Shown here: positions 20,816-43,625 of the stretch, in pieces
Layout of the letters: every line of letters begins with the position of its first letter
Numbering within the stretch: position 1 is the first letter of the stretch
Virus record (IMG/VR): IMGVR_UViG_3300008459_000033
Coordinates: 5,169-69,168 of that record
DNA from: a virus
Length of the DNA: 64,000 nucleotides
Reading direction: 5' to 3' (one strand)
Program-made: the position numbers and the translations under genes
The notes under the pieces: model-generated
Told to the model about the DNA's origin: nothing
Database searches by the model: none
What the model saw: only the letters and a program-made list of their open reading frames with translations

Positions 20816-21349
20816 ATGGCTTTAATTGATGAGGTATTTATAGTGAATTTTTTAGGCAATTTTAAAAACTGGTTAGACCCATTGTGGTTAAAACAAGTCC
20901 TAAATTCTAGAGGGGCAGGAAGGCCTAAAGAAGGTCAAACACCAAATTCAAAAAGAATGGAAGAAGAGTACGCCAGAGCTAGAGAGGCTGGATACAGTGA
21001 AGATGCTATATATTTTTGGATGTTTGACAAAGACAACGTTAACTTCGATATTCCGCAACCGCCTTTTATCGATGGAAAATTCCATTGGTGGATTACCAAA
21101 ATGATGCCGGGCAACTTCATGCCCATGCATGTTGATCCACATACAACTTATCAAAAAAATAGTCAACGTTATTGGATTCCGTTGCAGGATTGGGAACCTG
21201 GCCATATTTTTATATATGAAAATAGTATGATGGCAGATTATAAAGCAGGCGATATTTGGATGTATACTGATTCAGCAGCATTGCATGGTGCTGCAAATAT
21301 TGGGTTTACTCCTAGGGTAGTATTGCAGATAAGTACTTATGATGAATAA
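20816..21349 (+). CDS. 2OG-Fe(II) oxygenase-like protein
   Basis: PGNFMPMHVD...LHGAAN...R; start uncertain (20816 ATG or 20843 GTG). Confidence 0.75.
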   Translation: MALIDEVFIVNFLGNFKNWLDPLWLKQVLNSRGAGRPKEGQTPNSKRMEEEYARAREAGYSEDAIYFWMFDKDNVNFDIPQPPFIDGKFHWWITKMMPGNFMPMHVDPHTTYQKNSQRYWIPLQDWEPGHIFIYENSMMADYKAGDIWMYTDSAALHGAANIGFTPRVVLQISTYDE

Positions 21350-31872: not shown

Positions 31873-31918
31873 TAAGACATGCTGCAACAGTTGCAGCGTT
31901 TAAGGAAACGAAAACAAA

Positions 31919-32074
31919 ATGAACGCAATTTGTAATTTTAGACAATTTAAAACGATAGCCAAACAGGCTGTGCCGATGCACGGGTCTTGGTTAGCGATTA
32001 ATAGTCTATCATCAGATCGCACACCAGAGGGCTATAATAGCTCGGGGTTCTTAGAAGGGGCAGGTTACGCTTAA
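31919..32074 (+). CDS. Putative leader peptide (51 aa) of the RNA-array attenuator
   Basis: TAAGGA RBS; MNAICNFRQFKTIAKQAVPMHGSWLAINSLSSDRTPEGYNSSGFLEGAGYA; stop about 30 nt before the terminator. Confidence 0.6.
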   Translation: MNAICNFRQFKTIAKQAVPMHGSWLAINSLSSDRTPEGYNSSGFLEGAGYA

Positions 32075-32103
32075 ACAGCACCAAGTAACTTACAAACTTT
32101 AGG

Positions 32104-32140
32104 AACCCTAGGATTAAAAACCCTGGGGTTTTTTGTTTTT
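32104..32140 (+). terminator. Intrinsic terminator with a competing antiterminator
   Basis: AACCCTAGG/CCTGGGGTT stem plus T tract; 5' arm can instead pair with GGGGTTCTT (32044-32052). Confidence 0.75.
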
Positions 32141-32152
32141 ACAAAGGAAGAA

Positions 32153-32317
32153 ATGGAAAAGAAAGATTACGAAAAGTTAAATGAACGTATTGTCGAACAA
32201 GCTTATGAAGCAGTTCTTACAAAAGAGCAACTTCAAAAACTTATTCAAGATAAGTTTGATCGTGCTACAGTATATCACCGATCGCTGGCTAAACAGCCAA
32301 CGTTTAGTGTAAACTAA
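32153..32317 (+). CDS. Small hypothetical protein (54 aa)
   Basis: AAAGGA RBS; MEKKDYEKLNERIVEQAYEAVL... Confidence 0.6.
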   Translation: MEKKDYEKLNERIVEQAYEAVLTKEQLQKLIQDKFDRATVYHRSLAKQPTFSVN

Positions 32318-32324
32318 TAGTGCA

Positions 32325-32429
32325 AAGTGTGAATAACAGGAAACGAGGTCCTGGCAGCGCACTTAAAACATGCTGTAAACGGGCGGCCTGTAGGATGGAA
32401 CACTTCTTCTAGTGTGAAAAATTACAGCG
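32325..32429 (+). ncRNA. Structured RNA element(s), unknown
   Basis: AAGTGTG/CGCACTT and TGCTGTAA/TTACAGCG closing stems; no ORF. Confidence 0.4.
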
Positions 32430-32504
32430 TATTAAAGCATACTGAACAGACATATCCGCCGTAAGACGTGGAAGCATGGTGGTGATGACAGTATGCTTTA
32501 ATAC
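32429..32504 (+). repeat. Long-stem cassette E1
   Basis: Perfect 16-bp inverted repeat GTATTAAAGCATACTG/CAGTATGCTTTAATAC around 44 nt. Confidence 0.8.
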
Positions 32505-32567
32505 ACACTTTCCCATAGCGCCTTGAAAGCGCCGGAACCGACATAGTCTGGAGAGTGTTTAATTTTT

Positions 32568-32642
32568 GGGCTGATAGTGATAATGGGAGCACACTGGTTT
32601 TGCATATCGGTAGTTGGGGTTCGATCCCCCATCGGTCCACCA
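32568..32642 (+). tRNA. tRNA-Ala(TGC)
   Basis: Cloverleaf, encoded CCA. Confidence 0.85.
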
Positions 32643-32648
32643 AAATAT

Positions 32649-32723
32649 ATCCTGCTAGATTACTGGCTAGATCAATACCCTTTCAAGGTATAGGAACGGG
32701 ATCGATACCCGTGCAGGATGCCA
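32649..32723 (+). tRNA. tRNA-Glu(TTC)
   Basis: Cloverleaf, CCA. Confidence 0.85.
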
Positions 32724-32731
32724 AAGTTTAT

Positions 32732-32806
32732 ATACCGCTAGTGTTAACGGCAGCACGACAGTCTCCAAAACTGCTAGTGGGGGTTCAAATCCCTCGCGGT
32801 ATGCCA
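32732..32806 (+). tRNA. tRNA-Trp(CCA)
   Basis: Cloverleaf, CCA. Confidence 0.88.
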
Positions 32807-32813
32807 TTTTTAT

Positions 32814-32889
32814 CTCTCATTGGGCTAGCGGCTATGCCTCCTTGTTTGGAACGAGGAAATCGAAGGTTCGAGTCCTTCATGGGAGACCA
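32814..32889 (+). tRNA. tRNA-Pro(TGG)
   Basis: Cloverleaf, CCA. Confidence 0.85.
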
Positions 32890-32892
32890 AGT

Positions 32893-33116
32893 TTTGTAAG
32901 TGTCAGCAAGTGAAGTCACGCTAATAAGGTTTCTTCGAAGGACCGAGTTAGTAAAAGGTTAATGGGTTCAACTCCCACCCGCGGGGAACTGCGGAGGTCC
33001 GTAACGGGGACTATACTGGACGGATCCCAAGTGATATCCATCGCGTGTCGAGGTCAGGCTAGGCGGCCGGTAAGTCCTGAATAAATCTACGATAAATGTT
33101 GACGTAGGCTTACAAA
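32893..33116 (+). ncRNA. Unknown ~220-nt structured RNA (A)
   Basis: Ends pair (TTTGTAAGT-GTCAGCA with TGTTGAC..GCTTACAAA); internal T-loop GGGTTCAACTCCC; TTCG and GTAA hairpins. Confidence 0.6.
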
Positions 33117-33144
33117 TTCATTTTATGTTGTTTACCAAAATATG

Positions 33145-33209
33145 TTGACAGCAGCAAAAACGATGTTATAGTATACGCATGTTAAGCAATTAACATATGT
33201 TCATTAAAA
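33145..33209 (+). promoter_or_regulatory. Sigma70 promoter followed by a hairpin and boxA-like element
   Basis: TTGACA-16-TATAGT; GCAA-loop hairpin; TGTTCATTAAAA at 33198-33209. Confidence 0.6.
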
Positions 33210-33225
33210 ATTTAAGTATAAGAAG

Positions 33226-33338
33226 TTCTTATACACATACACACAACAGCGTAGGCCACGCTTATGTAGTGGATAACAGCCTTGTTTTGATGCATGGTTG
33301 GCAGGTTCGATTCCTGTAAGTGTGTAGTTGTATAAGAA
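33226..33338 (+). repeat. Long-stem cassette E2 enclosing a degenerate tRNA-like domain
   Basis: TTCTTATACA..TACACAC / GTGTGTA..TGTATAAGAA; internal T-arm GCAGGTTCGATTCCTGT. Confidence 0.65.
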
Positions 33339-33342
33339 TTAA

Positions 33343-34225
33343 GGGGAGTTTAATCTCCAGGACAGTATGGTTCGCCCAGCTGGACAAAAGATAAGCTAGG
33401 TGACTAGCCCAAAGCAGACGAGTCCTACACTCCTGCGCCAGCAATGGTCTGTTTAAGCAAGCCTGCTCACTACCGCGAGGTAGCGTTCACTGATAAGACC
33501 GGTGGATGTAACAGCAAAGCTGATGTATGGGGAAGAACATTGTTCGACGTGCCGCAAGGAACACGGGGCAATGAAAAGTAACAGGTGGTGCTGACTTCCA
33601 TACGAAACCAATCAGTTAGTTGGTATGAGAAAGGGTAGTGTATTGGTTCGAAGGGTCGCACCTAAGAGCTCGTATGCAATGTCAATGGTTAGTGGGCTGT
33701 AGTAATACAGTACACCGATCGTGAAACATCACTGAGTAGCTCGCGAGGCAAAAGGTATGTGGTGAGTTGTATTGGGTAGTTCAAAAGATTATTCAGCAAC
33801 TGAGTCAGCTCATCGCGGTAGGTTGTTATAGGCTAATGGTAGGCCATTTCTCTGTTAAAGAAACGACTGTGGGTTCGATCCCCACTAACATTTAAAATGC
33901 AAAGACTGACTCGGTCGTGTGTGAAAAGCATCTAATACTTGGGGCGCAAGCTAACCAAGTCAGACGTAACTCGCAAGGTGAAATCTGTTTATGCAGGAAG
34001 TTTCGTAACTGTTTAGCGACAGTGAATGGCTCTAAAGGTCAACGGAGTAGAAAGCGTAGAATAGCACACGATGTCAAGACTAATGCCTGTCTTTAAACGG
34101 CGATGCTGCAAGTAGACGTGGATACCTAGCAATAGGGCTGCGTGGAAGTCGGAAGAAAGAGTGCTCGCAAGGTGCTCAATAATGTCCGAGGTACTTGTAG
34201 GTTAGGATGTATTCTCAGTCCGCCA
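33343..34225 (+). ncRNA. Large (~880 nt) ornate ncRNA, probably GOLLD
   Basis: No sense ORF; GC-richer than flanks; many GNRA-capped hairpins; lies in a phage tRNA array; internal tRNA-like domain; boundaries approximate. Confidence 0.7.
33822..33893 (+). tRNA. tRNA-Asn(GTT)-like domain inside the large ncRNA, no CCA
   Basis: D arm, TTTCT-CTGTTAA-AGAAA anticodon arm, GTGGG-TTCGATC-CCCAC T arm; weak acceptor stem. Confidence 0.6.
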
Positions 34226-34226
34226 C

Positions 34227-34316
34227 TTATATAAAAGCACATTGACGTGTGACTGCGTCATTGGTAACAGTGAGAGGCCTACTAAAGCTGTAGGACATTA
34301 GTGTGTTTCTATATAA
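34227..34316 (+). repeat. Long-stem cassette E3
   Basis: TTATATAAAAGCACATTGA / TTAGTGTGTTTCTATATAA. Confidence 0.75.
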
Positions 34317-34318
34317 AT

Positions 34319-34404
34319 GGAGTTGTAGGAAAATTGGTAACCCCAGTGGACTGTAAATCCGCCGCCCTTGTGCATTGTTGGTTCAAGTCCAACCGGCTCC
34401 ACCA
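34319..34404 (+). tRNA. tRNA-Tyr(GTA)
   Basis: Cloverleaf with variable arm, CCA. Confidence 0.9.
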
Positions 34405-34418
34405 TAGTTTTTTAACTT

Positions 34419-34493
34419 GCTCGGTTCGTCTATCGGTCAGGACACCCGCCTTTCACGCAGGTAAGAGGGGTTCGATTCCCCTACCGAGTACCA
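34419..34493 (+). tRNA. tRNA-Glu(TTC)
   Basis: Cloverleaf, CCA. Confidence 0.9.
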
Positions 34494-34500
34494 ACGTAAC

Positions 34501-34577
34501 GCACAGGTACCAGAGCGACTAATGGCGCGGATTGCAAATCCGTTGATTCGTGGGTTTGAGTCCCACCCTGTGCTCCA
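34501..34577 (+). tRNA. tRNA-Cys(GCA)
   Basis: Cloverleaf, CCA. Confidence 0.85.
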
Positions 34578-34585
34578 GGAATATT

Positions 34586-35047
34586 ATGAGACAACAATTT
34601 TATCAGTCGTTAAAGATCGGTGAAGCTTGGGAAACTACCATGGAACAGTGGATGGCAAAATATTTTGCCAAGACTAAGTGGGTAGTTGAAGATGCACGAC
34701 ATGTTCATAGAGACGAGGACGGAGATCAATTCCCGGACTATGTTTTAGTGAACACTGAAACCGATAAGTTTTGTTTTATCGATGCAAAGAAACGCAATGC
34801 CTATGCCTGGAATGAACAAAGGTATTTCGGCTTTGATGAAAGATTTTTTAATAGCTATACCAACATAGCTAAGAAACACAACACAAAAGTATATGTAGGG
34901 TTTAATGATCCTGCGTTTGATCCCAATCACGTTTATATTCTAGACGTAAGTCAACCGCACGATTGGAAACCTTATTTTAGCAACGTGCATGGCTCTAGTC
35001 ATGCTTATCGTTGGAAAGTCGAACACCTAGTTCGTCTTGAAATGTAA
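34586..35047 (+). CDS. PD-(D/E)XK nuclease-like protein inside the tRNA array
   Basis: GEAWE...PDYVL...FIDAKKR; AGGA RBS. Confidence 0.65.
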   Translation: MRQQFYQSLKIGEAWETTMEQWMAKYFAKTKWVVEDARHVHRDEDGDQFPDYVLVNTETDKFCFIDAKKRNAYAWNEQRYFGFDERFFNSYTNIAKKHNTKVYVGFNDPAFDPNHVYILDVSQPHDWKPYFSNVHGSSHAYRWKVEHLVRLEM

Positions 35048-35050
35048 TAT

Positions 35051-35138
35051 GGAAGTTTGGTCGAGTGGTCTATGGCTCTAGTCTTGAAAACTAGCGAATC
35101 GAAAGGTTCCGTGAGTTCGAATCTCACAGCTTCCGCCA
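35051..35138 (+). tRNA. tRNA-Ser(TGA)
   Basis: Type II cloverleaf, CCA. Confidence 0.92.
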
Positions 35139-35142
35139 TATT

Positions 35143-35218
35143 GCTTCGTTAGCTCAATTGGGAGAGCGCGACACTGTCACTGTCGAGGTAAGGGGATCGA
35201 AACCCCTACGAGGCGCCA
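35143..35218 (+). tRNA. tRNA-Asp(GTC)
   Basis: Cloverleaf, CCA. Confidence 0.9.
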
Positions 35219-35221
35219 AGA

Positions 35222-35421
35222 ACGTTCTAGCTAATCACTAGATATTGTGACCCGCAAGATGAGAAGTGCTGTGATAAGCACGGGTGGTAGTCTTTAAACC
35301 GAAAGGCCGCTGGCAATGCGAGAACGGAACCTGTCGTGGAGAGGGTGGAGGCCGTATGTGATGGTATTGGGGGTTCCCGGTGCCTGATGCGGTATAATTA
35401 CCTCCGGGGTTCGCAGAGCAT
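35222..35421 (+). ncRNA. Unknown ~200-nt structured RNA (B)
   Basis: TTGTGACCC/GGGTTCGCAG closing stem, GGAGG/CCTCC, GAAA hairpin; no ORF; between tRNAs. Confidence 0.6.
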
Positions 35422-35476
35422 TTTTTAATTTTAAAAGGAGATCTGTCATGAATAGTGACAAGAGTGATAAGATGTC

Positions 35477-35551
35477 GGGGGTATAACTTAACGGCTAAAG
35501 TAGCGGGCTTTTAACCCGCAAATCAGAGTTCGATTCTCTGTGCCCCTACCA
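35477..35551 (+). tRNA. tRNA-Lys(TTT)
   Basis: Cloverleaf, CCA. Confidence 0.9.
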
Positions 35552-35640
35552 TATGTAAACACATTCAAAAATCTAAACATAGTTTAGCTAACGGTTAGCT
35601 CGCCGGACATCGAAGAGCACGAGTGTGTTTTCATATGGTA
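35547..35640 (+). repeat. Long-stem cassette E4
   Basis: TACCATATGTAAACACATTC / GAGTGTGTTTTCATATGGTA. Confidence 0.75.
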
Positions 35641-35711
35641 ACGTAGCATAATGGTCGTGCACCTCCTTCATACGGAGCAAGGTATTGGTTCGAATCCAAT
35701 CGTTACCACCA
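35637..35711 (+). tRNA. tRNA-Met or Ile2 (CAT)
   Basis: Cloverleaf, CAT anticodon, CCA. Confidence 0.8.
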
Positions 35712-35721
35712 ATCATTTAAT

Positions 35722-35796
35722 ACCTGTGTAGCTCAGTGGTAGAGCACCGTCTTGATAAGGCGGGTGTCGGTGGATCGTTCCCACCCACAGGTACCA
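35722..35796 (+). tRNA. tRNA-Ile(GAT)
   Basis: Cloverleaf, CCA. Confidence 0.88.
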
Positions 35797-35807
35797 GGTT
35801 ATTCTGT

Positions 35808-35881
35808 TGGACTATGGTGTAATGGTAACACAACTGACTTTGACTCAGTCGTTCCAGGTTCGAGCCCTGGTAGTCCTGCCA
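35808..35881 (+). tRNA. tRNA-Gln(TTG)
   Basis: Cloverleaf, CCA. Confidence 0.9.
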
Positions 35882-35887
35882 AGTTTT

Positions 35888-35962
35888 GCCCCGTTCGTAT
35901 AATGGATCATATACAAAGCTACGAACTTTGAGATGGTGGTTCGATTCCATCACGGGGCTCCA
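35888..35962 (+). tRNA. tRNA-Arg(ACG)
   Basis: Cloverleaf, CCA. Confidence 0.85.
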
Positions 35963-35964
35963 GT

Positions 35965-36038
35965 GTTGTTCCTAGTGTAGTGGCTGCACACCTGTCTGTG
36001 AAACAGGTAGAGAGGGTTCGATTCCCCGGTTCAACCCA
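35965..36038 (+). tRNA. tRNA-His(GTG), mismatched acceptor stem
   Basis: CCTGT-CTGTGAA-ACAGG arm, T arm, CCA; two T:T mismatches in the acceptor stem. Confidence 0.7.
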
Positions 36039-36042
36039 AGAT

Positions 36043-36133
36043 TATATTCAAGCACACTTCGGTCTAGGCATAGCCTAGGCATAAGGCAAGAAGACCTCTG
36101 TGATTAGAAACATTCCAAGTGTGCTTGAATATA
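36043..36133 (+). repeat. Long-stem cassette E5
   Basis: Perfect 17-bp inverted repeat TATATTCAAGCACACTT/AAGTGTGCTTGAATATA. Confidence 0.8.
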
Positions 36134-36135
36134 TT

Positions 36136-36211
36136 GCCGATGTAGCTCAGGTGGTAGAGCAGCGGATTGAAAATCCGTGTGTCACTGGTTCAACCCCAGT
36201 CTTCGGCACCA
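36136..36211 (+). tRNA. tRNA-Phe(GAA)
   Basis: Cloverleaf, CCA. Confidence 0.9.
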
Positions 36212-36229
36212 AATTTAAAGGAGCTCAAT

Positions 36230-36415
36230 ATGAAAGCCATTACGTTCAAGAACAAATTAAATAGCGAACAGGTAATATGTGAAAACATACGTGCCGTTGA
36301 AGTGATAGATGGCATTGAGTATCTAGTTGTCCATCGAAAAGAAAACAACAGAATGTTTTTAATGCGAAAAGATGTCTTAGAAAAAATCAACACAACCGTT
36401 GACAAAGCTAAGTAA
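36230..36415 (+). CDS. Small hypothetical protein
   Basis: AAGGAG RBS, MKAITFKNK... Confidence 0.7.
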   Translation: MKAITFKNKLNSEQVICENIRAVEVIDGIEYLVVHRKENNRMFLMRKDVLEKINTTVDKAK

Positions 36416-36427
36416 ACACACTATAAT
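36399..36427 (+). promoter_or_regulatory. Sigma70 promoter (perfect consensus)
   Basis: TTGACA-17-TATAAT just before tRNA-Leu. Confidence 0.8.
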
Positions 36428-36440
36428 AGATTTAAGAAAT

Positions 36441-36524
36441 GCGCAAGTGGTGGAATGGTATACACGGTGGTCTTAGAAGCCACTGCCGAGAGGATTGAGA
36501 GTTCGAGTCTCTCCTTGCGCACCA
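36441..36524 (+). tRNA. tRNA-Leu(TAG)
   Basis: Type II cloverleaf, CCA. Confidence 0.92.
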
Positions 36525-36535
36525 AAGGATATAGA

Positions 36536-36748
36536 ATGGAAGATATTAATATTTACGAGTTCGGCGAGTCGATGAAATACTTTGAAGAAAAGTTAGAAGG
36601 TATCGACTTTGTCATTGAACAGGTAGAAGGTCCAACTGAAGAAGAAGATTTGTGGTGTTTGGAAATTTTTGATCAAAAGATCCATTTTCAAACATTGGAT
36701 GAAGTAAAGAAACATTTGCACAGTATTATCGATAGTCGAATACCGTGA
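36536..36748 (+). CDS. Small acidic hypothetical protein
   Basis: AAGGA RBS, MEDINIYEF... Confidence 0.65.
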   Translation: MEDINIYEFGESMKYFEEKLEGIDFVIEQVEGPTEEEDLWCLEIFDQKIHFQTLDEVKKHLHSIIDSRIP

Positions 36749-36757
36749 TATAAAGTT

Positions 36758-36832
36758 GCCTGGTTAGCTCAGGGGTAGAGCGTCTCCTTTACACGGAGAG
36801 GGTCCGCGGTTCGAAACCGTGACCAGGTACCA
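36758..36832 (+). tRNA. tRNA-Val(TAC)
   Basis: Cloverleaf, CCA. Confidence 0.92.
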
Positions 36833-36840
36833 AAGTTTTT

Positions 36841-36932
36841 ACCTCCATAGTTTAATGGTAAAACGGCGGATTTATATCCCGTAAGCAACAGATAATTGGT
36901 TCATGTGGGTTCGACTCCCGCTGGAGGTACCA
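36841..36932 (+). tRNA. tRNA-Ile(TAT) with long variable arm
   Basis: Anticodon loop TTTATAT, ~22-nt variable region, CCA. Confidence 0.7.
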
Positions 36933-36942
36933 ATAAGTTTTT

Positions 36943-37032
36943 GGAGCGTGGGCCGGATGGTAAGGCAGCGGTTTGCTAAACCGTAGAACAGGTAAAATGG
37001 TTCACAGGGTTCGACTCCCTGACGCTCCGCCA
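36943..37032 (+). tRNA. tRNA-Ser(GCT)
   Basis: Type II cloverleaf, CCA. Confidence 0.9.
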
Positions 37033-37053
37033 AGTTAATTGAAAAGGAAATAT

Positions 37054-37257
37054 ATGTTAAAACCAGGTAAGACATTTAATTTAAGCAAGCAAACAAAGCG
37101 TTTCATGGCAACATTTGTCAACGCTGAAGATCGAAATCATTTTAAGCGTATGATGATTCAAGCAGAATTAGCAGCAGCTATTGTACCGAAGCGTGAAAAA
37201 CGTCCACAGGGCAATGCAGGTTATACACAGACTGCTACTTCGGCAACTGCGGATTAA
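37054..37257 (+). CDS. Small basic hypothetical protein
   Basis: AAAGGA RBS, MLKPGKTFNLSK... Confidence 0.7.
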   Translation: MLKPGKTFNLSKQTKRFMATFVNAEDRNHFKRMMIQAELAAAIVPKREKRPQGNAGYTQTATSATAD

Positions 37258-37259
37258 TA

Positions 37260-37538
37260 ATGAGTGGAAAGTGGCATGGGGGCAAAGGCAGTGCGCAACG
37301 CAAGGCATTAGTTCCACAGTCTCAAGTTGATAGTAATTGGGATACAATTTTTAAAAAGAAGGACCAAGGCATGCAAATAAGAGTCAAAGAAGATCCGGAA
37401 GAATTTGGTAAGTGTGGTTGTGGTCGTAGTCCAACTGGTAAGTGTATTGGTTGGCACGTTCTAAGTGAAGAAATGTATCAGCATCAAAAAATGCTTTGGT
37501 TAGAAGATGAACTTCGTAAAGACAACGAAGTTAAGTAA
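37260..37538 (+). CDS. Small protein with CDGSH-like metal-binding motif
   Basis: CGCGRSPTGKCIGWH. Confidence 0.6.
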   Translation: MSGKWHGGKGSAQRKALVPQSQVDSNWDTIFKKKDQGMQIRVKEDPEEFGKCGCGRSPTGKCIGWHVLSEEMYQHQKMLWLEDELRKDNEVK

Positions 37539-37544
37539 TAACGT

Positions 37545-37620
37545 GGGGGTGTAGCTCATTTGGGAGAGCGCCTGCTTTGCAAGCAGGATGTAGCAAGTTC
37601 GATCCTTGTCACCTCCACCA
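37545..37620 (+). tRNA. tRNA-Ala(TGC)
   Basis: Cloverleaf, G3:U70, CCA. Confidence 0.92.
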
Positions 37621-37638
37621 AGTTTTTAAGTAAGTATT

Positions 37639-37712
37639 GCCCTATTAGTTTAATGGTAAAACAACGGTTTTGTAATCCGTGGCTGGGAGTTCGATTCTCT
37701 CATGGGGCACCA
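37639..37712 (+). tRNA. tRNA-Thr(TGT)
   Basis: Cloverleaf, CCA. Confidence 0.88.
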
Positions 37713-37718
37713 AAATAT

Positions 37719-37794
37719 TCCGCAGTAGCTCAGTCGGTAGAGTAGATGACTGTTAATCATTTGGTCGGTGGTTCGAGCCCACCCTGTGGAGCCA
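37719..37794 (+). tRNA. tRNA-Asn(GTT)
   Basis: Cloverleaf, CCA. Confidence 0.92.
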
Positions 37795-37810
37795 ATAATA
37801 TTAAAAAGAC

Positions 37811-37838
37811 TTGACATTAAGTTTTTTTCGTATATAAT
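37811..37838 (+). promoter_or_regulatory. Sigma70 promoter
   Basis: TTGACA-16-TATAAT. Confidence 0.7.
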
Positions 37839-37845
37839 AAGTTTT

Positions 37846-38089
37846 GTTGTGTAGCAATACACAACCGGCGATGTAAAAGGTAGATGAGAGTAGACGATTG
37901 TTATCGCTACATGCGATGACAAAACTTAATGGCTGGACTAATCCTCCAACCTCGTAAGTTAGTGCTCCGGGTATAAACATAGAAAATCTGTTCTTTGCTA
38001 TCCGGTAATATTAACTTCTCTGCTCGTTGAATTTTGTACATTGTGCTTTGCACTTTGTTCGGTCTATTACTTGACCTTTTACAGGACCG
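37846..38089 (+). ncRNA. Unknown ~240-nt structured RNA or leader (C) upstream of rpoZ
   Basis: 5' GCAA hairpin; TGTAAAAGGT/ACCTTTTACA long-range stem; internal TTGTTATCGC/GCGATGACAA hairpin. Confidence 0.55.
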
Positions 38090-38112
38090 TTTTTAACTAA
38101 CTAAGGTACTCA

Positions 38113-38361
38113 ATGGCTCGATACACATCAGAAAAAGCAGCACAAATGTTTGGCAATAATCGTTTTAACCTAGTGTTAGGCGCAAGTCAACGTGCAAGAG
38201 AACTTAAGAATGGTTCTATGCAACGTGTAGAGGGCAAAGATGCAACTACCGTAGTCACCGCACTTCGTGAAATTGAAGAAGGCAAGTATACAGTAAAAGA
38301 ATGGCTAGATAAAATCCCAAAGAAAAGGAAAGGCAATCGTGATGAATATAACCCTACGTAA
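38113..38361 (+). CDS. rpoZ: RNA polymerase omega subunit
   Basis: MAR.T......GNNRFNLVL.ASQRAREL...TVVTALREIEEG matches RpoZ motifs. Confidence 0.88.
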   Translation: MARYTSEKAAQMFGNNRFNLVLGASQRARELKNGSMQRVEGKDATTVVTALREIEEGKYTVKEWLDKIPKKRKGNRDEYNPT

Positions 38362-38914
38362 GGCAAATGTAGTTCAGAACTCTGTTAACGATGCAATCAA
38401 AGCGATTGACATCAGTGTTAATGTTGAGATCAGCGAATTCCAAGATATTGATGCAGTGATTGCATCAGCACAAAAGAAATTAGCAGACAACGATCACCGT
38501 CGTGATCGCTTGCTGGTTACCTTGTATAACATTCGTGGCCTAGTTGGTCAAGCGAATGCTGAAAGTGGCATCGACCTAGCATTGGCTCGTGCAGCATACA
38601 TTGACAAGCGACTTGGTCAATTGGCTGAACTTGCAAGTGCAGCCGTTATCACTGACATGTCTGTGATCAAAGGCAAGATTGACAAGATCAAGAACAGCAA
38701 AGACGAAGGTCGTCGTAGCCTGTATGGTTATAGCGATGGAGTGACAACTTCGGTGTTGACACAAGAAAAGATTGACCAGATTAAGAACGAAGTAAAAGTT
38801 CTTAAGAAACAGAAGCAAAAGCTCAACGATGAAATCCTTGAGTTGAATATCAAAACAGATATTCCACTTAGCGATGATGCAGTGGCAATTTTGCAGGCTG
38901 AAGGTCTAATCTAA
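38342..38914 (+). CDS. Coiled-coil hypothetical protein
   Basis: 190-aa ORF overlapping the rpoZ end. Confidence 0.75.
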   Translation: MNITLRKANVVQNSVNDAIKAIDISVNVEISEFQDIDAVIASAQKKLADNDHRRDRLLVTLYNIRGLVGQANAESGIDLALARAAYIDKRLGQLAELASAAVITDMSVIKGKIDKIKNSKDEGRRSLYGYSDGVTTSVLTQEKIDQIKNEVKVLKKQKQKLNDEILELNIKTDIPLSDDAVAILQAEGLI

Positions 38915-38919
38915 CAGAC

Positions 38920-39116
38920 CCCGGTTTACGCTTTTACGTTAGAAAAGTGCGTGATTGCTGATACGAGAGAGGCACGGTGCATTGGATCTACCGCAAGGTT
39001 CTCTTTAGGAACGACTTGAGAAATCACAAAGGTAGGGACGCTATCCTGTCTAAATAGAAAAGAACGTGGACAGAGTAACCGCTCAGTCCGGGGCTCATGT
39101 GGTGTGAGTAGCCGGA
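38920..39116 (+). ncRNA. Unknown ~200-nt structured RNA (D)
   Basis: CCGGTTTAC/GTAGCCGG closing stem; GCAA hairpin; no ORF. Confidence 0.55.
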
Positions 39117-39117
39117 C

Positions 39118-39202
39118 ACTTTATTAAAATATTTTAGTCACAGCTGAGAATTATAGACTTCAGATTGCATAGCAATGTGTCATTAAAGTATTTTAATAAA
39201 GT
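39118..39202 (+). repeat. Long-stem cassette E6
   Basis: ACTTTATTAAAATATTTTAGT / ATTAAAGTATTTTAATAAAGT. Confidence 0.7.
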
Positions 39203-39205
39203 TAT

Positions 39206-39279
39206 CGCGGGATAGAGAAAGGGCATCTCAGAAGTCTCATAAGCTTCAGTTCTTGGTTCGAATCCAGGTCCCGCAACCA
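39206..39279 (+). tRNA. tRNA-Met(CAT), initiator-like
   Basis: CGCGGG 5' end with C1:A72 mismatch, CAT, CCA; lacks the three G-C anticodon-stem pairs. Confidence 0.8.
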
Positions 39280-39286
39280 AATTCAA

Positions 39287-39535
39287 ATGATAGATTACCT
39301 AACAACATTTTTTGCTATATTTTTACTTGATATTGTTTATACATATTATCTAAGATGTGTGGCAAATGACAATGTATTAGGAGCAAGCTTTTGGTCTGTG
39401 GCTTGTTATGTTTTAGGAAGTGTAGCAGTTATAAATTACACGTCTAATCATTGGTTAATGATTCCAGCAATGGCAGGTGCGTTTTGTGGCACCTATGTTG
39501 GCATGAAGATTAGAAAAAAACAATTCGGAGTGTAG
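39287..39535 (+). CDS. Small membrane protein
   Basis: 82 aa, three hydrophobic segments. Confidence 0.7.
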   Translation: MIDYLTTFFAIFLLDIVYTYYLRCVANDNVLGASFWSVACYVLGSVAVINYTSNHWLMIPAMAGAFCGTYVGMKIRKKQFGV

Positions 39536-39546
39536 CGCCGAGTCTG

Positions 39547-40077
39547 TTAAAATTTTTCCGGGTGTAGCTTAGTCTGGCTTAAAGCGCCTGCTTTGGGAGC
39601 AGGAGATCGTGAGTTCGAATCCCACTTCCCGGACCAATCTAACTTATTACCTTTTTGTCTATTTTGACTCATAGGTAAGTATTGAAGATTATCTTGATGA
39701 TGTAGTCCACCTTTACTAACGGGTATGATGTGATCTACTTCAAACCCTATAGGACATTCTTCATAGATTTTTTGTATTAGTTTTAAATCTGCATCAGGTG
39801 GTGTTTGAGCTTTTTGTTTAGCGTGGTATCTTTGCCAGGCTTCATTAGCAATAGCTCGTTTATGTTTATAGTGAGCTTCATCCTTTTCGACTCGGCTCGC
39901 TAATTGAGCACATTTATGTGAACAATATTGATTAGTGGATGTGTGCCTAAATATTTTTTCGGCACCACAATGCTTACAGTTAAAAATTCGCTTAGGTTTA
40001 CCGCAATACTTTGTATGCATCGTTAAACCTTGCGTGTTTTTAAACTCTGATTTACAGTTGGGACATTCGTGTTTCAT
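39547..40077 (-). CDS. HNH endonuclease with N-terminal zinc fingers
   Basis: CPNC..H..C, CKHC...CSHKC, EVDHIIPVSKGGLH..NLQ.L...N..KGNK; C-terminus runs antisense through tRNA-Pro. Confidence 0.88.
   Translation of the reverse strand: MKHECPNCKSEFKNTQGLTMHTKYCGKPKRIFNCKHCGAEKIFRHTSTNQYCSHKCAQLASRVEKDEAHYKHKRAIANEAWQRYHAKQKAQTPPDADLKLIQKIYEECPIGFEVDHIIPVSKGGLHHQDNLQYLPMSQNRQKGNKLDWSGKWDSNSRSPAPKAGALSQTKLHPEKF
39558..39636 (+). tRNA. tRNA-Pro(TGG)
   Basis: Cloverleaf, CCA. Confidence 0.88.
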
Positions 40078-40208
40078 ATAAGTATTTATCAGTCTGGTAG
40101 CGCAGAATAGAAACATAGGCGTACAAGGTTCGAATCCTTGTACTCCGACCAAAAACTCTCCCTGACATGCGGAGTATAATGTGATAAGTAGTATGTCAAA
40201 AATTTAAT

Positions 40209-40284
40209 GCGGGCGTAGCTCAGTTGGTAGAGCATTACCTTGCCAAGGTAAATGTCGTCGGTTCGAACCCGATCGCCCGCTCCA
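40209..40284 (+). tRNA. tRNA-Gly(GCC)
   Basis: Cloverleaf, CCA. Confidence 0.93.
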
Positions 40285-40294
40285 AAGGACAATT

Positions 40295-40690
40295 ATGTTA
40301 GAATGTTTGATTCTAGGTGACAGTATTGCAGTTGGTACAGCTAATATTCGTACTGAGTGTGTTTCATATTCACATGGTGGATGGAACTCGTGGCAGTGGA
40401 ATAAGAAGTATAAAGACACTCCCGTTGCAGCAAAGACAGTAATTATCAGTTTAGGCAGCAATGATCATAAAGGTGTTAGAACTCTTTGGGAGTTACAACA
40501 ACTGCGTGATAGAACAAAAGCAGATAGAGTCTATTGGATCCTTCCTGCAATTAAACCAGACATCCAAGAGATGGTCAAATTAGTTGCCAAGGATCATAAC
40601 GATGTCGTGTTACCTATTACACGATTACAAAAAGATGGAGTTCATCCTTCCTGGGCAGGTTATAAAGAGCTTGCAGATAAATCAAGGTGA
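40295..40690 (+). CDS. Small SGNH/GDSL hydrolase
   Basis: LGDSIAVG, SLGSND, DGVHP. Confidence 0.8.
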   Translation: MLECLILGDSIAVGTANIRTECVSYSHGGWNSWQWNKKYKDTPVAAKTVIISLGSNDHKGVRTLWELQQLRDRTKADRVYWILPAIKPDIQEMVKLVAKDHNDVVLPITRLQKDGVHPSWAGYKELADKSR

Positions 40691-40716
40691 TGCTATAATA
40701 AGTTTATAGTTAGTAT

Positions 40717-40790
40717 GCGGGGTTAGTTTAATGGCAAAACAGCAGATTTCCAATCTTCGGTCGAGAGTTCGATTCTCTCACTCCGCTCCA
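40717..40790 (+). tRNA. tRNA-Gly(TCC)
   Basis: Cloverleaf, CCA. Confidence 0.88.
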
Positions 40791-40797
40791 AATATAT

Positions 40798-40872
40798 CTG
40801 GCGTTCGTTCAATGGATAGGACATGATTCTTCTAAAGTCATTATGGAGGTTCGATTCCTCCACGCCGGGCCA
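40798..40872 (+). tRNA. tRNA-Arg(TCT)
   Basis: Cloverleaf, CCA. Confidence 0.88.
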
Positions 40873-40890
40873 ATAACAATAAGGTAGATA

Positions 40891-41076
40891 ATGGGTAAGA
40901 AAGAAGAACAAGAAGCAACCGATGCCGCTGTTGCAGAATTTTTAGCAGGCGGTGGAATCATTCAACAAATTCCAATGGGTAAGAGTGGTCGCGTCGAGGG
41001 AGAAAGTTATAACCCTTGGGGCAAGAAGAAAACCACAGCACCTAGCCCACTAGCAGAACTTCCAGAAGAAGATTAA
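40891..41076 (+). CDS. Small hypothetical protein
   Basis: TAAGG RBS; AVAEFLAGGG.I..IP.G motif. Confidence 0.7.
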   Translation: MGKKEEQEATDAAVAEFLAGGGIIQQIPMGKSGRVEGESYNPWGKKKTTAPSPLAELPEED

Positions 41077-41151
41077 GCTCTTATAGTATAATGGCTATTA
41101 TGCTGTCTTGGTATGACAGAGATCGTAGTTCAATTCTACGTTAGAGCACCA
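41077..41151 (+). tRNA. tRNA-Thr(GGT)
   Basis: Cloverleaf, CCA. Confidence 0.85.
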
Positions 41152-41156
41152 AGTAT

Positions 41157-41240
41157 GCGAGTGTGGTGGAATGGTATACACAGCAGACTTAAAATCTGCC
41201 GCTTAATTGATTGAGGGTTCAAGTCCCTCCACTCGTACCA
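41157..41240 (+). tRNA. tRNA-Leu(TAA)
   Basis: Type II cloverleaf, CCA. Confidence 0.92.
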
Positions 41241-41248
41241 CGAACAAA

Positions 41249-41329
41249 GCCCCGGTAGACAAATTGGCAAAGTCGTCTCTCTCAAAAAGAGAAATTTAAA
41301 TGCGGGTTCAACTCCCGCCCGGGGTACCA
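41249..41329 (+). tRNA. tRNA-Leu(CAA), short variable arm
   Basis: Cloverleaf, CCA. Confidence 0.8.
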
Positions 41330-41358
41330 TTGACAAACACAGTGTTTGATCGTATCAT
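41330..41358 (+). promoter_or_regulatory. Sigma70 promoter
   Basis: TTGACA-17-TATCAT. Confidence 0.6.
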
Positions 41359-41364
41359 AATAGA

Positions 41365-41598
41365 ATGTATAAAGTAATAAGCAAATCGGGACTCCCACTT
41401 AACTCATGTCCTACACTAAACGAAGCTATGGCATTTGCCAAAACTGTAGGTATGTTTGTAACTATCAGCGGCCCGGATTTTGAAGTGTGCGGTATATTTG
41501 GAGTTGATAGTGTTGAAGATGGTCTATGTCCAGATGGTGTAGCTTACACATGGAACAAAGCTAGCCGTATAGGACGAATTAAAAAAGAGAGAGTATAA
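41365..41598 (+). CDS. Hypothetical protein
   Basis: 77-aa ORF coupled to the next gene. Confidence 0.7.
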   Translation: MYKVISKSGLPLNSCPTLNEAMAFAKTVGMFVTISGPDFEVCGIFGVDSVEDGLCPDGVAYTWNKASRIGRIKKERV

Positions 41599-42092
41599 TG
41601 CCCTGGATTGAAAATGTATCATTAGGAGATATTCCCAAAGGTCGACATCACAACGCCGGAGAGAACTCTATGCTGATTCAAATTGTTGATCCGGACATGG
41701 AGTTTCCTGTGCCAATGCACAAGTTTAAATCTACTCATCAGTTTAAGTTTCTTGATTTAGAAAAAACCGATGACACAATAAATGACCAATGGAAAATTCA
41801 AGACGAACAAGCTGAAGAATTAGTTCGCTTGTTGCAACACGCTCTAGAACATCGCATGAACGTTGTTGTGCATTGTGTAGCAGGTGTATGCCGTAGTGGG
41901 GCTGTATGTGAAGTAGGAACCATATTAGGCTTTGACGATACTGAAGTATTTCGTAGCCCCAATCTTCTTGTCAAACACAAGATGATGAAAGTGCTAGGAA
42001 TGACCTACGATGAAAGCGAACCACACACAATTAATGGTGTAACTACTGATTGGGGATTTGTTATTCCAAAGAATCGCGAAGGCGATATCTAA
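41598..42092 (+). CDS. Cys-based (PTP/dual-specificity-like) phosphatase
   Basis: VHCVAGVCRS (HCX5R). Confidence 0.82.
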   Translation: MPWIENVSLGDIPKGRHHNAGENSMLIQIVDPDMEFPVPMHKFKSTHQFKFLDLEKTDDTINDQWKIQDEQAEELVRLLQHALEHRMNVVVHCVAGVCRSGAVCEVGTILGFDDTEVFRSPNLLVKHKMMKVLGMTYDESEPHTINGVTTDWGFVIPKNREGDI

Positions 42093-42115
42093 CCGTAGTA
42101 ATTCTACAACAAAAG

Positions 42116-42141
42116 AAAGCCCTGTTACTATGCAGGGCTTT
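42116..42141. terminator. Hairpin, possible terminator
   Basis: AAAGCCCTG/CAGGGCTTT. Confidence 0.5.
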
Positions 42142-42175
42142 CGCACGATGTTATAATGTATATAGAGGAAATAAA

Positions 42176-42721
42176 ATGAAAACATGGATCACTAGCGATT
42201 TACATTTCGGTCACAAGAACATAATGAAGTTTTGCCCGATCACGCGAGCAAGATTCCGCGACGATGTTAGCTACATGAACGAAGCCATGATTAAGGAATG
42301 GAACGATTTAATCGAGCCAGAAGACACTGTTTACATCTTAGGTGATGTAGCATTTATGTCAGGCAGCGATGCTGGAAGAACTGTGAATCGTTTAAACGGC
42401 TCAAAGATCTTAGTTGAAGGAAATCACGATCGTAAAACGTTACAGGATGCCACATTCCGTAATGCGTTTAAAGAAGTACACAAGTATTTGGATGTTACCT
42501 ATGACGGTCATAAGATTGTTATGTTTCACTATCCAATCAGCGAGTGGGATCAAATGCACAGAGGTTCCTTACATTTCTTTGGTCACGTACATGGTGGCGA
42601 CAGCGGTATGGAAAAATATCGTTGTAGAGATGTAGGTATGGATGCCACAGGCATGATAGCTGTGTCAATGGAATGGGCAATTGCCAATGTTAAGAACAAT
42701 GAAATAAAAGGACATCACTAA
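42176..42721 (+). CDS. Calcineurin-like metallophosphoesterase
   Basis: SDLHFGH, LGD, GNHD, HYP, GHVH. Confidence 0.9.
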   Translation: MKTWITSDLHFGHKNIMKFCPITRARFRDDVSYMNEAMIKEWNDLIEPEDTVYILGDVAFMSGSDAGRTVNRLNGSKILVEGNHDRKTLQDATFRNAFKEVHKYLDVTYDGHKIVMFHYPISEWDQMHRGSLHFFGHVHGGDSGMEKYRCRDVGMDATGMIAVSMEWAIANVKNNEIKGHH

Positions 42722-43233
42722 TGGATATCGTAGAAAAAGCTCGCATCTTTGCAACTGCTGCTCATGCTGCTGTCGATCAGCGCCGTAAGTATACCAACGA
42801 ACCCTATATTGTTCATCCTAAACAAGTTGCCGACTTTGTAGCCAACGTCCCCGGTGCCACACCCGAGATGATTGCTGCTGCTTGGTTGCATGATGTTGTT
42901 GAAGATACTAAAGTAACCAACGAAGACATTGCTCGAGAGTTTGGTGACAAAGTTGGTGAGTATGTAGGCTGGGTAACTGACATTAGTCGTCCTGAGTATG
43001 GCAATCGTGCATTCCGTAAAGAAATGGATCGTAATCATATTGCAGGAGCACCTGGAGAAGCGCAGACAATTAAGTTGGCTGACATCATCAGTAACTGCTC
43101 TAGTATCATGATTCACGATGAAGACTTTGCTAAAGTTTACTTTGAAGAAAAACGATTGTTGTTAGAAGTCTTAACAAAAGGCGATTCTGGATTGTATAAC
43201 TATGCATCTAATTTAGTATTGGACGAAGAATGA
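42721..43233 (+). CDS. HD-domain (p)ppGpp hydrolase-like protein (small alarmone hydrolase/Mesh1 type)
   Basis: AH..Q.RK..EPYIVHP..VA, AAWLHDVVEDT, IKLAD. Confidence 0.85.
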   Translation: MDIVEKARIFATAAHAAVDQRRKYTNEPYIVHPKQVADFVANVPGATPEMIAAAWLHDVVEDTKVTNEDIAREFGDKVGEYVGWVTDISRPEYGNRAFRKEMDRNHIAGAPGEAQTIKLADIISNCSSIMIHDEDFAKVYFEEKRLLLEVLTKGDSGLYNYASNLVLDEE

Positions 43234-43625
43234 AACTGTTATTAGTACGTGGCTTGCCAGGATCTGGCAAGTCCACTATTGCAAAAAACTTAATTGGTTA
43301 CTACTATCATGTAGAAACTGATATGTTCTGGATGCAGGACGGTGAGTATAAGTGGGATGCTAGTCGACTAGGCGAAGCTCACGCATGGTGTTTGAATCGC
43401 ACTCGCGAACTTATGACCACAGGATTCTCACCTGTTGTTAGCAACACGTTTACTACTATCAAAGAAATGCGCCCGTATTTTGATCTTGCCAAAGAATTTG
43501 ATATTGTTCCAACTGTAATAGTTGTACAAAATGAATGGGGCAATGTGCATAATGTTCCGGAAGAAACTTTGGCTAAAATGAAGGCACGATTCCAATTTGA
43601 TATCTCGGAGTTATTCAATGTTTAA
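43230..43625 (+). CDS. P-loop kinase (AAA_33/polynucleotide kinase-like)
   Basis: RGLPGSGKST, D.F, NTF, HNVP...KM..RF. Confidence 0.8.
   Translation: MKLLLVRGLPGSGKSTIAKNLIGYYYHVETDMFWMQDGEYKWDASRLGEAHAWCLNRTRELMTTGFSPVVSNTFTTIKEMRPYFDLAKEFDIVPTVIVVQNEWGNVHNVPEETLAKMKARFQFDISELFNV

Follow-up and report, generated by a model that had tools for sequence, protein, structure and literature searches.

Clamp-closed RNA modules with exchangeable inner RNAs, a previously undescribed family in freshwater phage tRNA islands

The DNA studied here is a 64-kb stretch (hereafter the window) of the 69,168-bp single-contig virus record IMGVR_UViG_3300008459_000033. It carries a tRNA island of 33 tRNA genes, all on the + strand and spread over positions 32568-41329 of the window. 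Embedded in this island is the giant RNA GOLLD (33341..34221, + strand), which consists of a variable 5' domain, a linker containing a tRNA-Asn (33821-33894) and a 3' domain; the latter corresponds to the Rfam RF02032 match at 33759-34221 (201.7 bits), and the 5' limit was inferred from the end of the element that precedes it. Along the same array lie six elements, E1 to E6, in each of which a long inverted repeat closes a short insert. We refer to the closing helix as the clamp and to the insert as the cargo. A preliminary description had presented them as six cassettes with conserved arms and unrelated inserts, two of which (E2 and E3) bracketed a giant RNA; that RNA is GOLLD. The results below show that these elements belong to a family of clamp-closed modules that recurs in related phages, keeps its place among stable RNAs and exchanges its inner RNA.

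All six elements are read on the + strand. E1 (32424..32509) is closed by a perfect 16-bp inverted repeat (helix 32429-32444/32489-32504) around 44 nt of cargo. E2 (33224..33340; arms 33226-33244/33320-33338) stands at the 5' edge of GOLLD and holds a 75-nt tRNA-like cargo with a T-arm. E3 (34224..34319) starts 3 nt past the end of the GOLLD model and ends at tRNA-Tyr. E4 (35546..35641) fills the spacer between tRNA-Lys(UUU) and tRNA-Met(CAU), a slot that is kept in relatives, and E5 (36039..36137), with its perfect 17-bp repeat, fills the one between tRNA-His and tRNA-Phe. E6 (39116..39204) lies before a tRNA-Met(CAU), after a structured spacer of about 200 nt that follows the 3' end of a gene for a 191-aa protein. 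A listing of inverted repeats contained five of the six (E1, 16 nt at 100%; E2, 19 nt at 89%; E4, 20 nt at 90%; E5, 17 nt at 100%; E6, 25 nt at 88%); E3 was absent from it because three of its pairs are G.U, yet it folds as described. When the elements were folded as RNA, z-scores ranged from -3.6 to -6.0 (-5.4 for E2) and none of 200 shuffles did as well for any of them; the reverse strands fold too, as expected with palindromic arms. E3 and E5 end 2 nt, and E6 2-3 nt, before the next tRNA, and E4 shares 5 nt with the end of tRNA-Lys and 4 nt with the start of tRNA-Met. The positions of the repeats and their spacing from the tRNAs were thus borne out. E2 is the only one of the six flagged by ARAGORN (33257-33325, 'tRNA-???' with a 4-base anticodon), and the Rfam tRNA model reported neither E2 nor any other element at E<=5.

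With the conserved 191-aa island protein (38339-38914) as query we retrieved 72 related viral-contig loci (labelled L plus a number), in which a simple arm motif already revealed the same elements. In an alignment of 39 distinct copies over a 20-pair helix, 91.8% of the cells were paired, compared with 76.4% when the 3' letters were shuffled, and both sides changed in 15 of the 20 pairs; for both measures, none of 500 shuffles reached the observed value. As a control, sliding the partner by 1-3 columns made pairing fall to 28-53%. These figures substantiate the compensatory arm changes claimed earlier for the six copies and indicate that the pairing of the helix is under selection. A covariance model of the helix arms, R1, was built with E1, E3, E4 and E5, but not E6, in its training set. 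Applied without filters to the entire window, it gave 46-62 bits for the four training copies (48.2 for E1, 55.9 for E3, 61.9 for E4 and 46.4 for E5) and recovered the untrained E6 with 33.3 bits (E=1.4e-4). E2 was marginal (15.6 bits, E=0.75), and there was no further match below E=1 in the 64 kb. E1, E3, E4, E5 and E6 are therefore one family, and the claim of shared arms stands for these five; E2 fails the arm model but is the positional counterpart of an element present at the 5' side of GOLLD in related loci (see below).

Over the 72 loci R1 gave 164 matches at E<=0.01. The best 150 of these 164 were aligned, 95 of them lying on the + strand; together with the six of the window they make up a set of 65 distinct elements from 46 sources, the window included. 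The family is present in at least 45 of the 72 related loci and in many further contigs: a search of the viral collection with an inner-arm pattern (the pattern scan) detected at least 120 further stretches, and of the 80 loci fetched from it, likewise labelled L, nearly all score with R1, some holding three to five elements in a row. The absence of an arm consensus from related phages had been named in advance as the sign of mere chance palindromes; the consensus is there. The elements are also confined to particular places. A 98%-complete relative of 353 kb has two matches, both inside its tRNA island; two other related records contain 6 and 3 elements, each set in one region, and another record has none. 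R1 found no match in the Caulobacter phage CcrPW, where the 191-aa protein has its only match among cultured phages (26% identity) at a locus without tRNAs. A nucleotide search with the 7.6-kb region against GenBank phages returned tRNA-sized matches only, and no relative of a 153-aa ORF of the island was found in the viral contigs. In bacterial genome bins a strict arm pattern occurred in four short contigs only; these are assigned to unrelated freshwater taxa, so that no host can be deduced from them.

The pattern scan also brought up look-alikes in Pasteurellaceae-type prophages (L104 and 11 similar loci: L109, L116, L118, L125, L135, L136, L138, L140, L141, L152 and L155), with related inner arms, R1 scores of 32-41 bits and no tRNAs nearby. 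We did not assign them to the family, since the pattern itself selected them. They consist of a conserved hairpin of about 91 nt, come from contigs of isolate genomes, and their flanking DNA resembles Mannheimia and Aggregatibacter phages.

Could the six repeats be chance AT-rich palindromes without function? The genome is 62% A+T and the outer halves of the arms are AT-rich as well, which is what such an origin would call for. However, nothing comparable was matched elsewhere in the window, the helix is conserved with covariation in at least 45 of 72 related loci, and its slots are fixed beside GOLLD and particular tRNAs, so that we give this explanation practically no credence.

The aligned copies reveal a clamp made of two unlike halves. 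With a median span of 21 positions (quartiles 20-24, n=63), the helix makes about two helical turns. In its outer half the sequence depends on the slot and the pairing is kept, whereas the inner nine pairs are nearly constant in type (5' AARCAYAYU / 3' ARURUGYUU, columns 12-20; the inner box). Between the halves, an A.C mismatch occupies column 11 in 25 of 64 copies, and a U.U in a few others. At column 19 the pair is U.G in 39/64 copies, C-G in 20/64 and U-A in 5/64, and the reverse C.A was never seen (0/64). Indeed none of the 64 copies showed the mirror forms of the irregularities at columns 11 and 19 that an inverted copy would give, and in the rest of the core helix (columns 6-21 without 11 and 19) there were 20 G.U against 4 A.C. 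The 80 loci of the pattern scan, an independent set, gave the same picture: among asymmetric elements with tRNAs within 1.5 kb, the U.G lay on the tRNA strand in 48 cases out of 48 (16 elements were symmetric, and 19 lay more than 1.5 kb from any tRNA). These asymmetries indicate that the element acts as an RNA on the tRNA strand.

We then considered where the elements stand. Seventeen of the 65 abut a tRNA on both sides, 23 only downstream and 7 only upstream, which makes 47 with a tRNA on at least one side and leaves 18 with none. The most conserved slot is that of E4, between tRNA-Lys(UUU) and tRNA-Met(CAU), where the element exactly fills the spacer and potential pairing reaches the CCA of the upstream tRNA and the opening bases of the downstream one. 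Elements without an adjoining tRNA retain an NCCA-like start and a UGG end. In L115, tRNAs and elements alternate five times, and some slots hold tandem pairs of elements (L012, L048, L055, L026). The slot of E6 is occupied by orthologues in, among others, L001-L004, L009/L010, L025, L048, L053 and L055-L060.

The association with GOLLD is just as regular. An R1 element lies 1-3 nt after the end of the RF02032 model in 14 of 14 GOLLD copies (12 loci, L048 and the window, where it is E3); in all of them the model stops short of the element and does not cover it. On the other side, a long-stem element of 16-24 pairs ends 419-431 nt before the GOLLD 3' domain in the 10 loci out of 10 that have enough upstream sequence, at the edge of the variable 5' domain. 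E2 is this element, and its arms, like those of several counterparts, have diverged from the R1 consensus. The RF02032 model excludes the variable 5' domain, so that E2 may still be part of the mature RNA. Long-stem elements thus stand on both sides of GOLLD wherever both flanks could be checked.

E1 proved not to be free-standing. It lies at the centre of a conserved RNA of about 220 nt with several helices (32338..32558, + strand), of which it forms the variable hairpin. This RNA, here called the island leader, stops 9 nt short of tRNA-Ala (32568), the island's first tRNA. In an alignment of the leader from 7 loci, 19 of 44 predicted pairs show changes on both sides, and the E1 orthologues of the 6 other loci carry different cargo. 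The leader has an invariant CAUAG beside a 9-bp ACACUCUCC/GGAGAGUGU helix, and it matched no Rfam family at E<=5. The flush placement of the elements at the ends of tRNAs and of GOLLD fits a role in processing, which the preliminary description had offered as one of its two options.

The inserts had been described as unrelated. Local alignment of the 65 inserts did separate them into 53 clusters, a very high diversity, with cargo lengths from 14 to 91 nt; however, recurrent features were detected among them. CATAG is present in 19 of 64 cargos, where 3.1 were expected and the maximum in 300 shuffles was 8 (about 6-fold), typically as a C-AUA-G hairpin loop. E4, E5 and E6 have one each: the E5 cargo opens with a CUAGG-CAUAG-CCUAG hairpin and that of E6 contains a UUGC-AUA-GCAA hairpin. 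The T-loop motif GGTTC[GA]A, of which E2 has a copy, occurs in 6 of 64 cargos for 0.34 expected (about 18-fold). A general enrichment of CATAG over the island was ruled out, as in the non-tRNA space the motif is not commoner in sense (268) than in antisense (305); the enrichment is specific to cargo.

Some cargos also recur as a whole. That of E4 is homologous to the cargos of L048:5568, in the same slot, and of L009:3007, in the slot 3' of GOLLD; with five further elements they compose a family of 8 sequences from three slot types that share a covarying CAUAG hairpin. A cloverleaf-like cargo with a T-arm was found in four phages and three different slots, with compensatory changes in the T-stem, and a three-hairpin cargo is kept in the Val-Phe slot of four loci. 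About one tenth of all cargos are tRNA-like, some of them cloverleaf-like with a T-arm but without a free CCA end. A constant scaffold with variable cargo, as proposed in the preliminary description, is therefore strongly supported by the relatives, and the cargo looks functional and modular, judging from its recurrence across slots. A guide function, which had also been proposed, found no support: the longest exact complementarity of the six inserts to the 69-kb contig was 9-13 nt, within the shuffled range (mean about 11, maximum 14-15), and the 13-mer complement of E2 is the T-arm that it shares with tRNAs.

How the cargo changes could be followed in the Lys-Met slot. In pairs of loci whose flanking tRNAs are 93-100% identical, cargo identity was 46-53%, against a shuffled baseline of 45%. 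The arms, by comparison, have a median identity of 86%, versus 76% for the flanking tRNAs (66 pairs of 12 slots). Near-identical flanks around unrelated cargo mean that the cargo is exchanged en bloc and that the boundaries of this exchange lie within the conserved arms.

Such replacement is also what might be expected of pure punctuation, in which the stems only process or insulate the transcript (as RNase III sites or exonuclease roadblocks) and the cargo is disposable filler. That same-slot cargos are unrelated between phages with near-identical flanks, that they are so diverse in cluster and length and pair with the contig no better than by chance, and that the elements are flush with the neighbouring stable RNAs would all suit this explanation. 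But filler would drift by point changes rather than by whole replacement, and it would not be expected to recur in other slots and in distant phages with its hairpins kept by compensatory changes, to be conserved in the Val-Phe slot of four loci, or to be enriched in CAUAG loops and T-loops to the extent measured. We regard it as unlikely, although it deserves to be kept in mind.

Block exchange could equally be read at the level of DNA, the arms being sites of recombination or transposition (MITE-like, attC-like, or boundaries of shuffling) and the RNA hairpin being incidental. Whole-cargo replacement between near-identical flanks, the presence of one cargo in different slots, the better conservation of the arms relative to the flanking tRNAs and the tandem pairs in one slot all speak in its favor. 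On the other hand, the copies are confined to the island and strictly co-oriented with transcription, they share no internal sequence as MITEs do, and exchange takes place inside the arms and not at the outer ends as in integron cassettes. Moreover, no integrase or transposase was found among the 76 ORFs of the window scanned with Pfam, and the cargo bears motifs of an RNA type, namely the T-loop and the covarying hairpins. This explanation therefore appears very improbable to us, and any recombination at the conserved arms may well follow from the design without being its purpose.

A third possibility concerns the inner box, which together with the mismatch could bind a dedicated protein of the host or the phage, as in the ribonucleoproteins of Y RNAs; the cargo would then be an effector or a decoy, for instance a tRNA mimic directed at host factors that bind or cleave tRNAs. 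The sequence of columns 12-20 is indeed kept far beyond what pairing needs, the mismatch and the wobble are asymmetric and position-specific, some cargos resemble a cloverleaf with a T-arm but without a free CCA end, and a tRNA-repair gene set (41598-44505) lies immediately downstream of the array. Against this, no Ro/TROVE gene (PF05731) was found in any of 5 related phage records, including one that is 98% complete, under conditions in which control genomes gave the expected matches, nor among the 76 window ORFs scanned; no Rfam YrlA or Y RNA match fell on the elements at E<=5, no candidate binding protein was found, and the tRNA-like cargos amount to only about a tenth. We are doubtful of this possibility, and place it somewhat below that of mere punctuation.

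Regarding expression, near-identical DNA was detected in freshwater and lake metagenome runs, 14 of which contained at least half of the sampled words. Six RNA-library runs also had near-identical sequence, each with 29-47% of the sampled words, and the array is covered by assembled contigs from 4 freshwater RNA libraries. A single RNA-library contig (34016-34370) joins the 3' part of GOLLD, E3 and the start of tRNA-Tyr with zero differences. These data being assembled contigs, they are blind to RNA ends, strand and level, and an admixture of DNA is possible. In four RNA runs the summed word depth was hundreds to thousands on the body of GOLLD and 4-87 in the next bin, and the high-depth RNA-library contigs listed are confined to 33349-34207, that is between E2 and E3. 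We set this step aside and did not count it as evidence of processing, because depth is one figure per contig, strain-variable cargo would break assemblies at just these places, tRNAs are poorly captured and DNA may contribute. None of the RNA-library contig joints listed falls at an element end.

Taken together, the covarying and strand-specific two-turn helix, its confinement to tRNA islands, its flush placement and the block exchange of a structured cargo are best explained by a combination of punctuation and small-RNA delivery. The explanation that we favor, and to which these comparisons of sequences lend somewhat better than even chances, is that co-transcribed clamp modules delimit the neighbouring stable RNAs and release small RNAs protected by their stem. 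The modules would be transcribed inside the tRNA/GOLLD polycistrons of the phage, and their arms would close into a helix of about 20-21 bp during RNA synthesis. Each clamp would thereby sequester the spacer between two stable RNAs (tRNA and tRNA, GOLLD and tRNA, or leader and tRNA), insulate the folding of its neighbours and fix where they are cut apart. Wherever a tRNA follows, RNase P would make the 3' end of the element, as established tRNA biology requires. The 5' side might be cut by the endonuclease that forms tRNA 3' ends or, as a central mismatch in a helix of 20-21 bp suggests, by an RNase III-type enzyme that is specific for double strands and acts near this mismatch. After the latter cut the cargo would keep the inner box, and the neighbours would retain the slot-specific outer halves as short tails that can be trimmed off. 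The cargo would be left as a small RNA of about 60-110 nt with both ends locked in the inner box, and the cargos themselves would be exchangeable structured RNAs: CAUAG-loop hairpins, cloverleaf-like RNAs with a T-arm, and others. The existence of the family, its pairing, strand and placement, and the recurrence and swapping of cargo are observed; a cut at or in the clamp, the enzyme responsible, and the accumulation and action of the cargo are what we infer from them.

Several points weigh against this explanation. The conservation of the inner-box sequence exceeds the needs of a generic clamp or of RNase III and thus argues for a specific partner. Hairpins of single-stranded DNA might in principle produce the orientation bias and the tolerance of G.T as well. 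No more than 4 and 8 sequences went into the cargo alignments, and the only expression data are the RNA-library contigs, with their silence on ends, strand and level and their possible DNA content. Release as a separate small RNA cannot apply to every member, given that 18 of 65 abut no tRNA and that E1 is an internal hairpin. Finally, no RNase III gene was found in the five related phage records, where control genomes gave the expected matches; any such cut would therefore rely on a host enzyme.

A bolder proposal, which we consider distinctly less probable than the release of stem-protected RNAs, is that the clamp is the universal handle of a phage small-RNA arsenal: a partner (a double-stranded RNA-binding protein, a nuclease or the GOLLD nanocage) would read the inner box, and the swapped cargos would decoy or titrate host defences that target tRNAs. 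If true, it would represent a natural system of scaffold and interchangeable payload RNA that is genetically coupled to GOLLD biogenesis. To our knowledge, the nanocage structure of GOLLD has been solved but its function and the pathway of its biogenesis have not been established, and clamps at both of its ends give a concrete handle on how these ends form and on which RNAs arise alongside. More generally, the family shows that phage tRNA islands contain more than tRNAs, namely a modular set of small structured RNAs whose exchange between phages outpaces change in the surrounding tRNAs, a pattern typical of loci in conflict with the host. The covariance model can label hundreds of unannotated spacers in freshwater viral contigs, and a naturally selected clamp of this kind, locking any small RNA at its two ends between sites of tRNA processing, might serve as an RNA expression scaffold.

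Other features of the island and its surroundings are as follows. A putative sigma-70-type promoter (33145-33172, + strand; TTGACA-16-TATAGT with a TG upstream, 11 of 12 consensus positions, a consensus match only) lies ahead of E2, GOLLD and E3. Further sigma-70-type consensus matches on the + strand precede other parts of the array at 36399-36427, 37811-37838 (perfect consensus) and 41330-41358. Directly after the perfect one comes a structured 5' leader (37835-37931), upstream of a small ORF of the RNA polymerase omega/Rpb6 family (38113-38361; PF01192, 43.5 bits), which is located inside the tRNA island just upstream of the gene for the 191-aa protein. The stretch 38915-39115 is the spacer of about 200 nt that follows this gene, and in several relatives its length is kept (198-209 nt) between the gene and an E6-type element. 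Like two other non-coding stretches between tRNAs (32900-33100 and 35219-35420), it looks structured and is covered by RNA-library contigs; none of the three had an Rfam match at E<=5. Between tRNAs of L048 (3889-3994, Cys-Leu) and L072 (8357-8459, Arg-His) there is a further conserved spacer RNA, about 100 nt long; it forms a ACAUAGUA-loop hairpin and has no long clamp. A small ORF of about 60 aa (40891-41076) occupies a tRNA gap of about 200 nt, and inspection by eye showed similar peptides in the corresponding gaps of L048 and L072. Among the tRNAs, tRNA-Ile(UAU) (36841-36932) has 92 nt and contains an insertion of unusual length, and tRNA-Ser(GCU) (36943-37032) has 90 nt; a tRNA-Ile(UAU) is also present in L115.

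The RNA-repair genes directly downstream of the array (41598-44505) encode a DSP-type phosphatase, a phosphoesterase (phrog_547), an HD-domain protein, an AAA_33 P-loop kinase and a T4 Rnl1-type RNA ligase; this set suggests that the phage expects its tRNAs to be cleaved by the host. Upstream of the island, radical-SAM genes are unusually numerous in the region 2887-31678: PF04055 is present in about 11-12 ORFs, several of which have SPASM domains as well. The region also encodes a tryptophan halogenase (21339-22955), two Asp/Arg beta-hydroxylase-like proteins and a fatty-acid desaturase, and has the look of a large cluster for the modification of peptides or nucleosides.

It remains to place the clamp family among known systems. 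None of the six elements matched an Rfam 15 family at the gathering score, nor at E<=5 over 31900-41500. By resemblance, the nearest analogies would be the RNase III stems of rRNA and phages, the intervening sequences of 23S rRNA, the Y RNAs with YrlA, and the small RNAs of the T4 tRNA cluster. RNase III stems (rRNA flanks, T7 R1.1-type) are likewise helices of about two turns between mature RNAs, often with a central mismatch, and their phage copies share sequence. The clamp has this two-turn double strand and this location. It differs in being a local helix that closes its own cargo instead of pairing the flanks of a neighbouring RNA, in the inner box that is kept across slots and phages, and in the structured and recurrent nature of its cargo; for the clamp, moreover, cleavage is a prediction.

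Y RNAs and YrlA (RF02553) are similar in their size of about 100 nt, in having their 5' and 3' ends in a long stem with a conserved, imperfect protein-binding segment, in a variable module that is tRNA-like with a T-arm in YrlA, and in adjacent RNA-repair genes. The terminal stem is present in all members of the clamp family. The T-arm motif is found in only 6 of 64 cargos, and one cargo family is cloverleaf-like. However, most cargos are not tRNA-like, there is no match to RF02553 in the elements and no Ro/TROVE gene in the five related records, and the stem sequence seems unlike that of Ro-binding helices. The only YrlA row in the window (19.2 bits, 35683-35745) falls in the tRNA-Met/tRNA-Ile region, off any element, and a sub-threshold row of 32.9 bits in L072 also lies outside the elements. 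Species 1 and 2 of the T4 tRNA cluster come close in another respect, as small non-tRNA RNAs that are co-transcribed with phage tRNAs and released by the tRNA-processing enzymes; they are single genes that are not known to have a shared clamp or to exchange cargo. We know of no function for these two RNAs.

The intervening sequences of 23S rRNA and the transcribed inverted repeats that RNase III cuts (Correia/nemis, ERIC) are likewise extended stem-loops, conserved in the stem and variable at the top, which are removed or cleaved from stable or messenger RNAs. Those are dispersed or sit in rRNA helices, and Correia elements share internal sequence and occur in both orientations, whereas clamps are found in islands only, co-oriented in 48 cases of 48, with 53 cargo clusters in 65 copies. 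The mobile promoter-stem-loop cassettes of T4-type phages and the attC sites of integrons resemble the clamps as short conserved repeats that bound exchangeable modules, and attC sites do so further as imperfect hairpins with a variable centre and strand-specific irregularities. In the clamps, though, it is the RNA inside the hairpin that is exchanged and not a gene between hairpins: the arms and the flanking tRNAs stay and the inner cargo alone changes, attC core sites were absent from them by eye, and the scanned ORFs of the window include no recombinase. TIGR guide arrays were discarded, since their short spacers of fixed length are unlike structured cargos of 14-91 nt.

As to the literature, the 2017 study of ROOL and GOLLD (PMC5737381) and a cryo-EM preprint (10.1101/2024.12.08.627333) place GOLLD near tRNA islands and, in the portions available to us, note nothing further there. 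No earlier description of the clamp family appeared in those portions or in searches of openly accessible full texts. Altogether, the clamp family departs in its testable features from each of its nearest analogies, while sharing with RNase III stems the helix length and the position between mature RNAs, and clamp-closed RNA modules with exchangeable inner RNAs are a previously undescribed family in the tRNA islands of freshwater phages.

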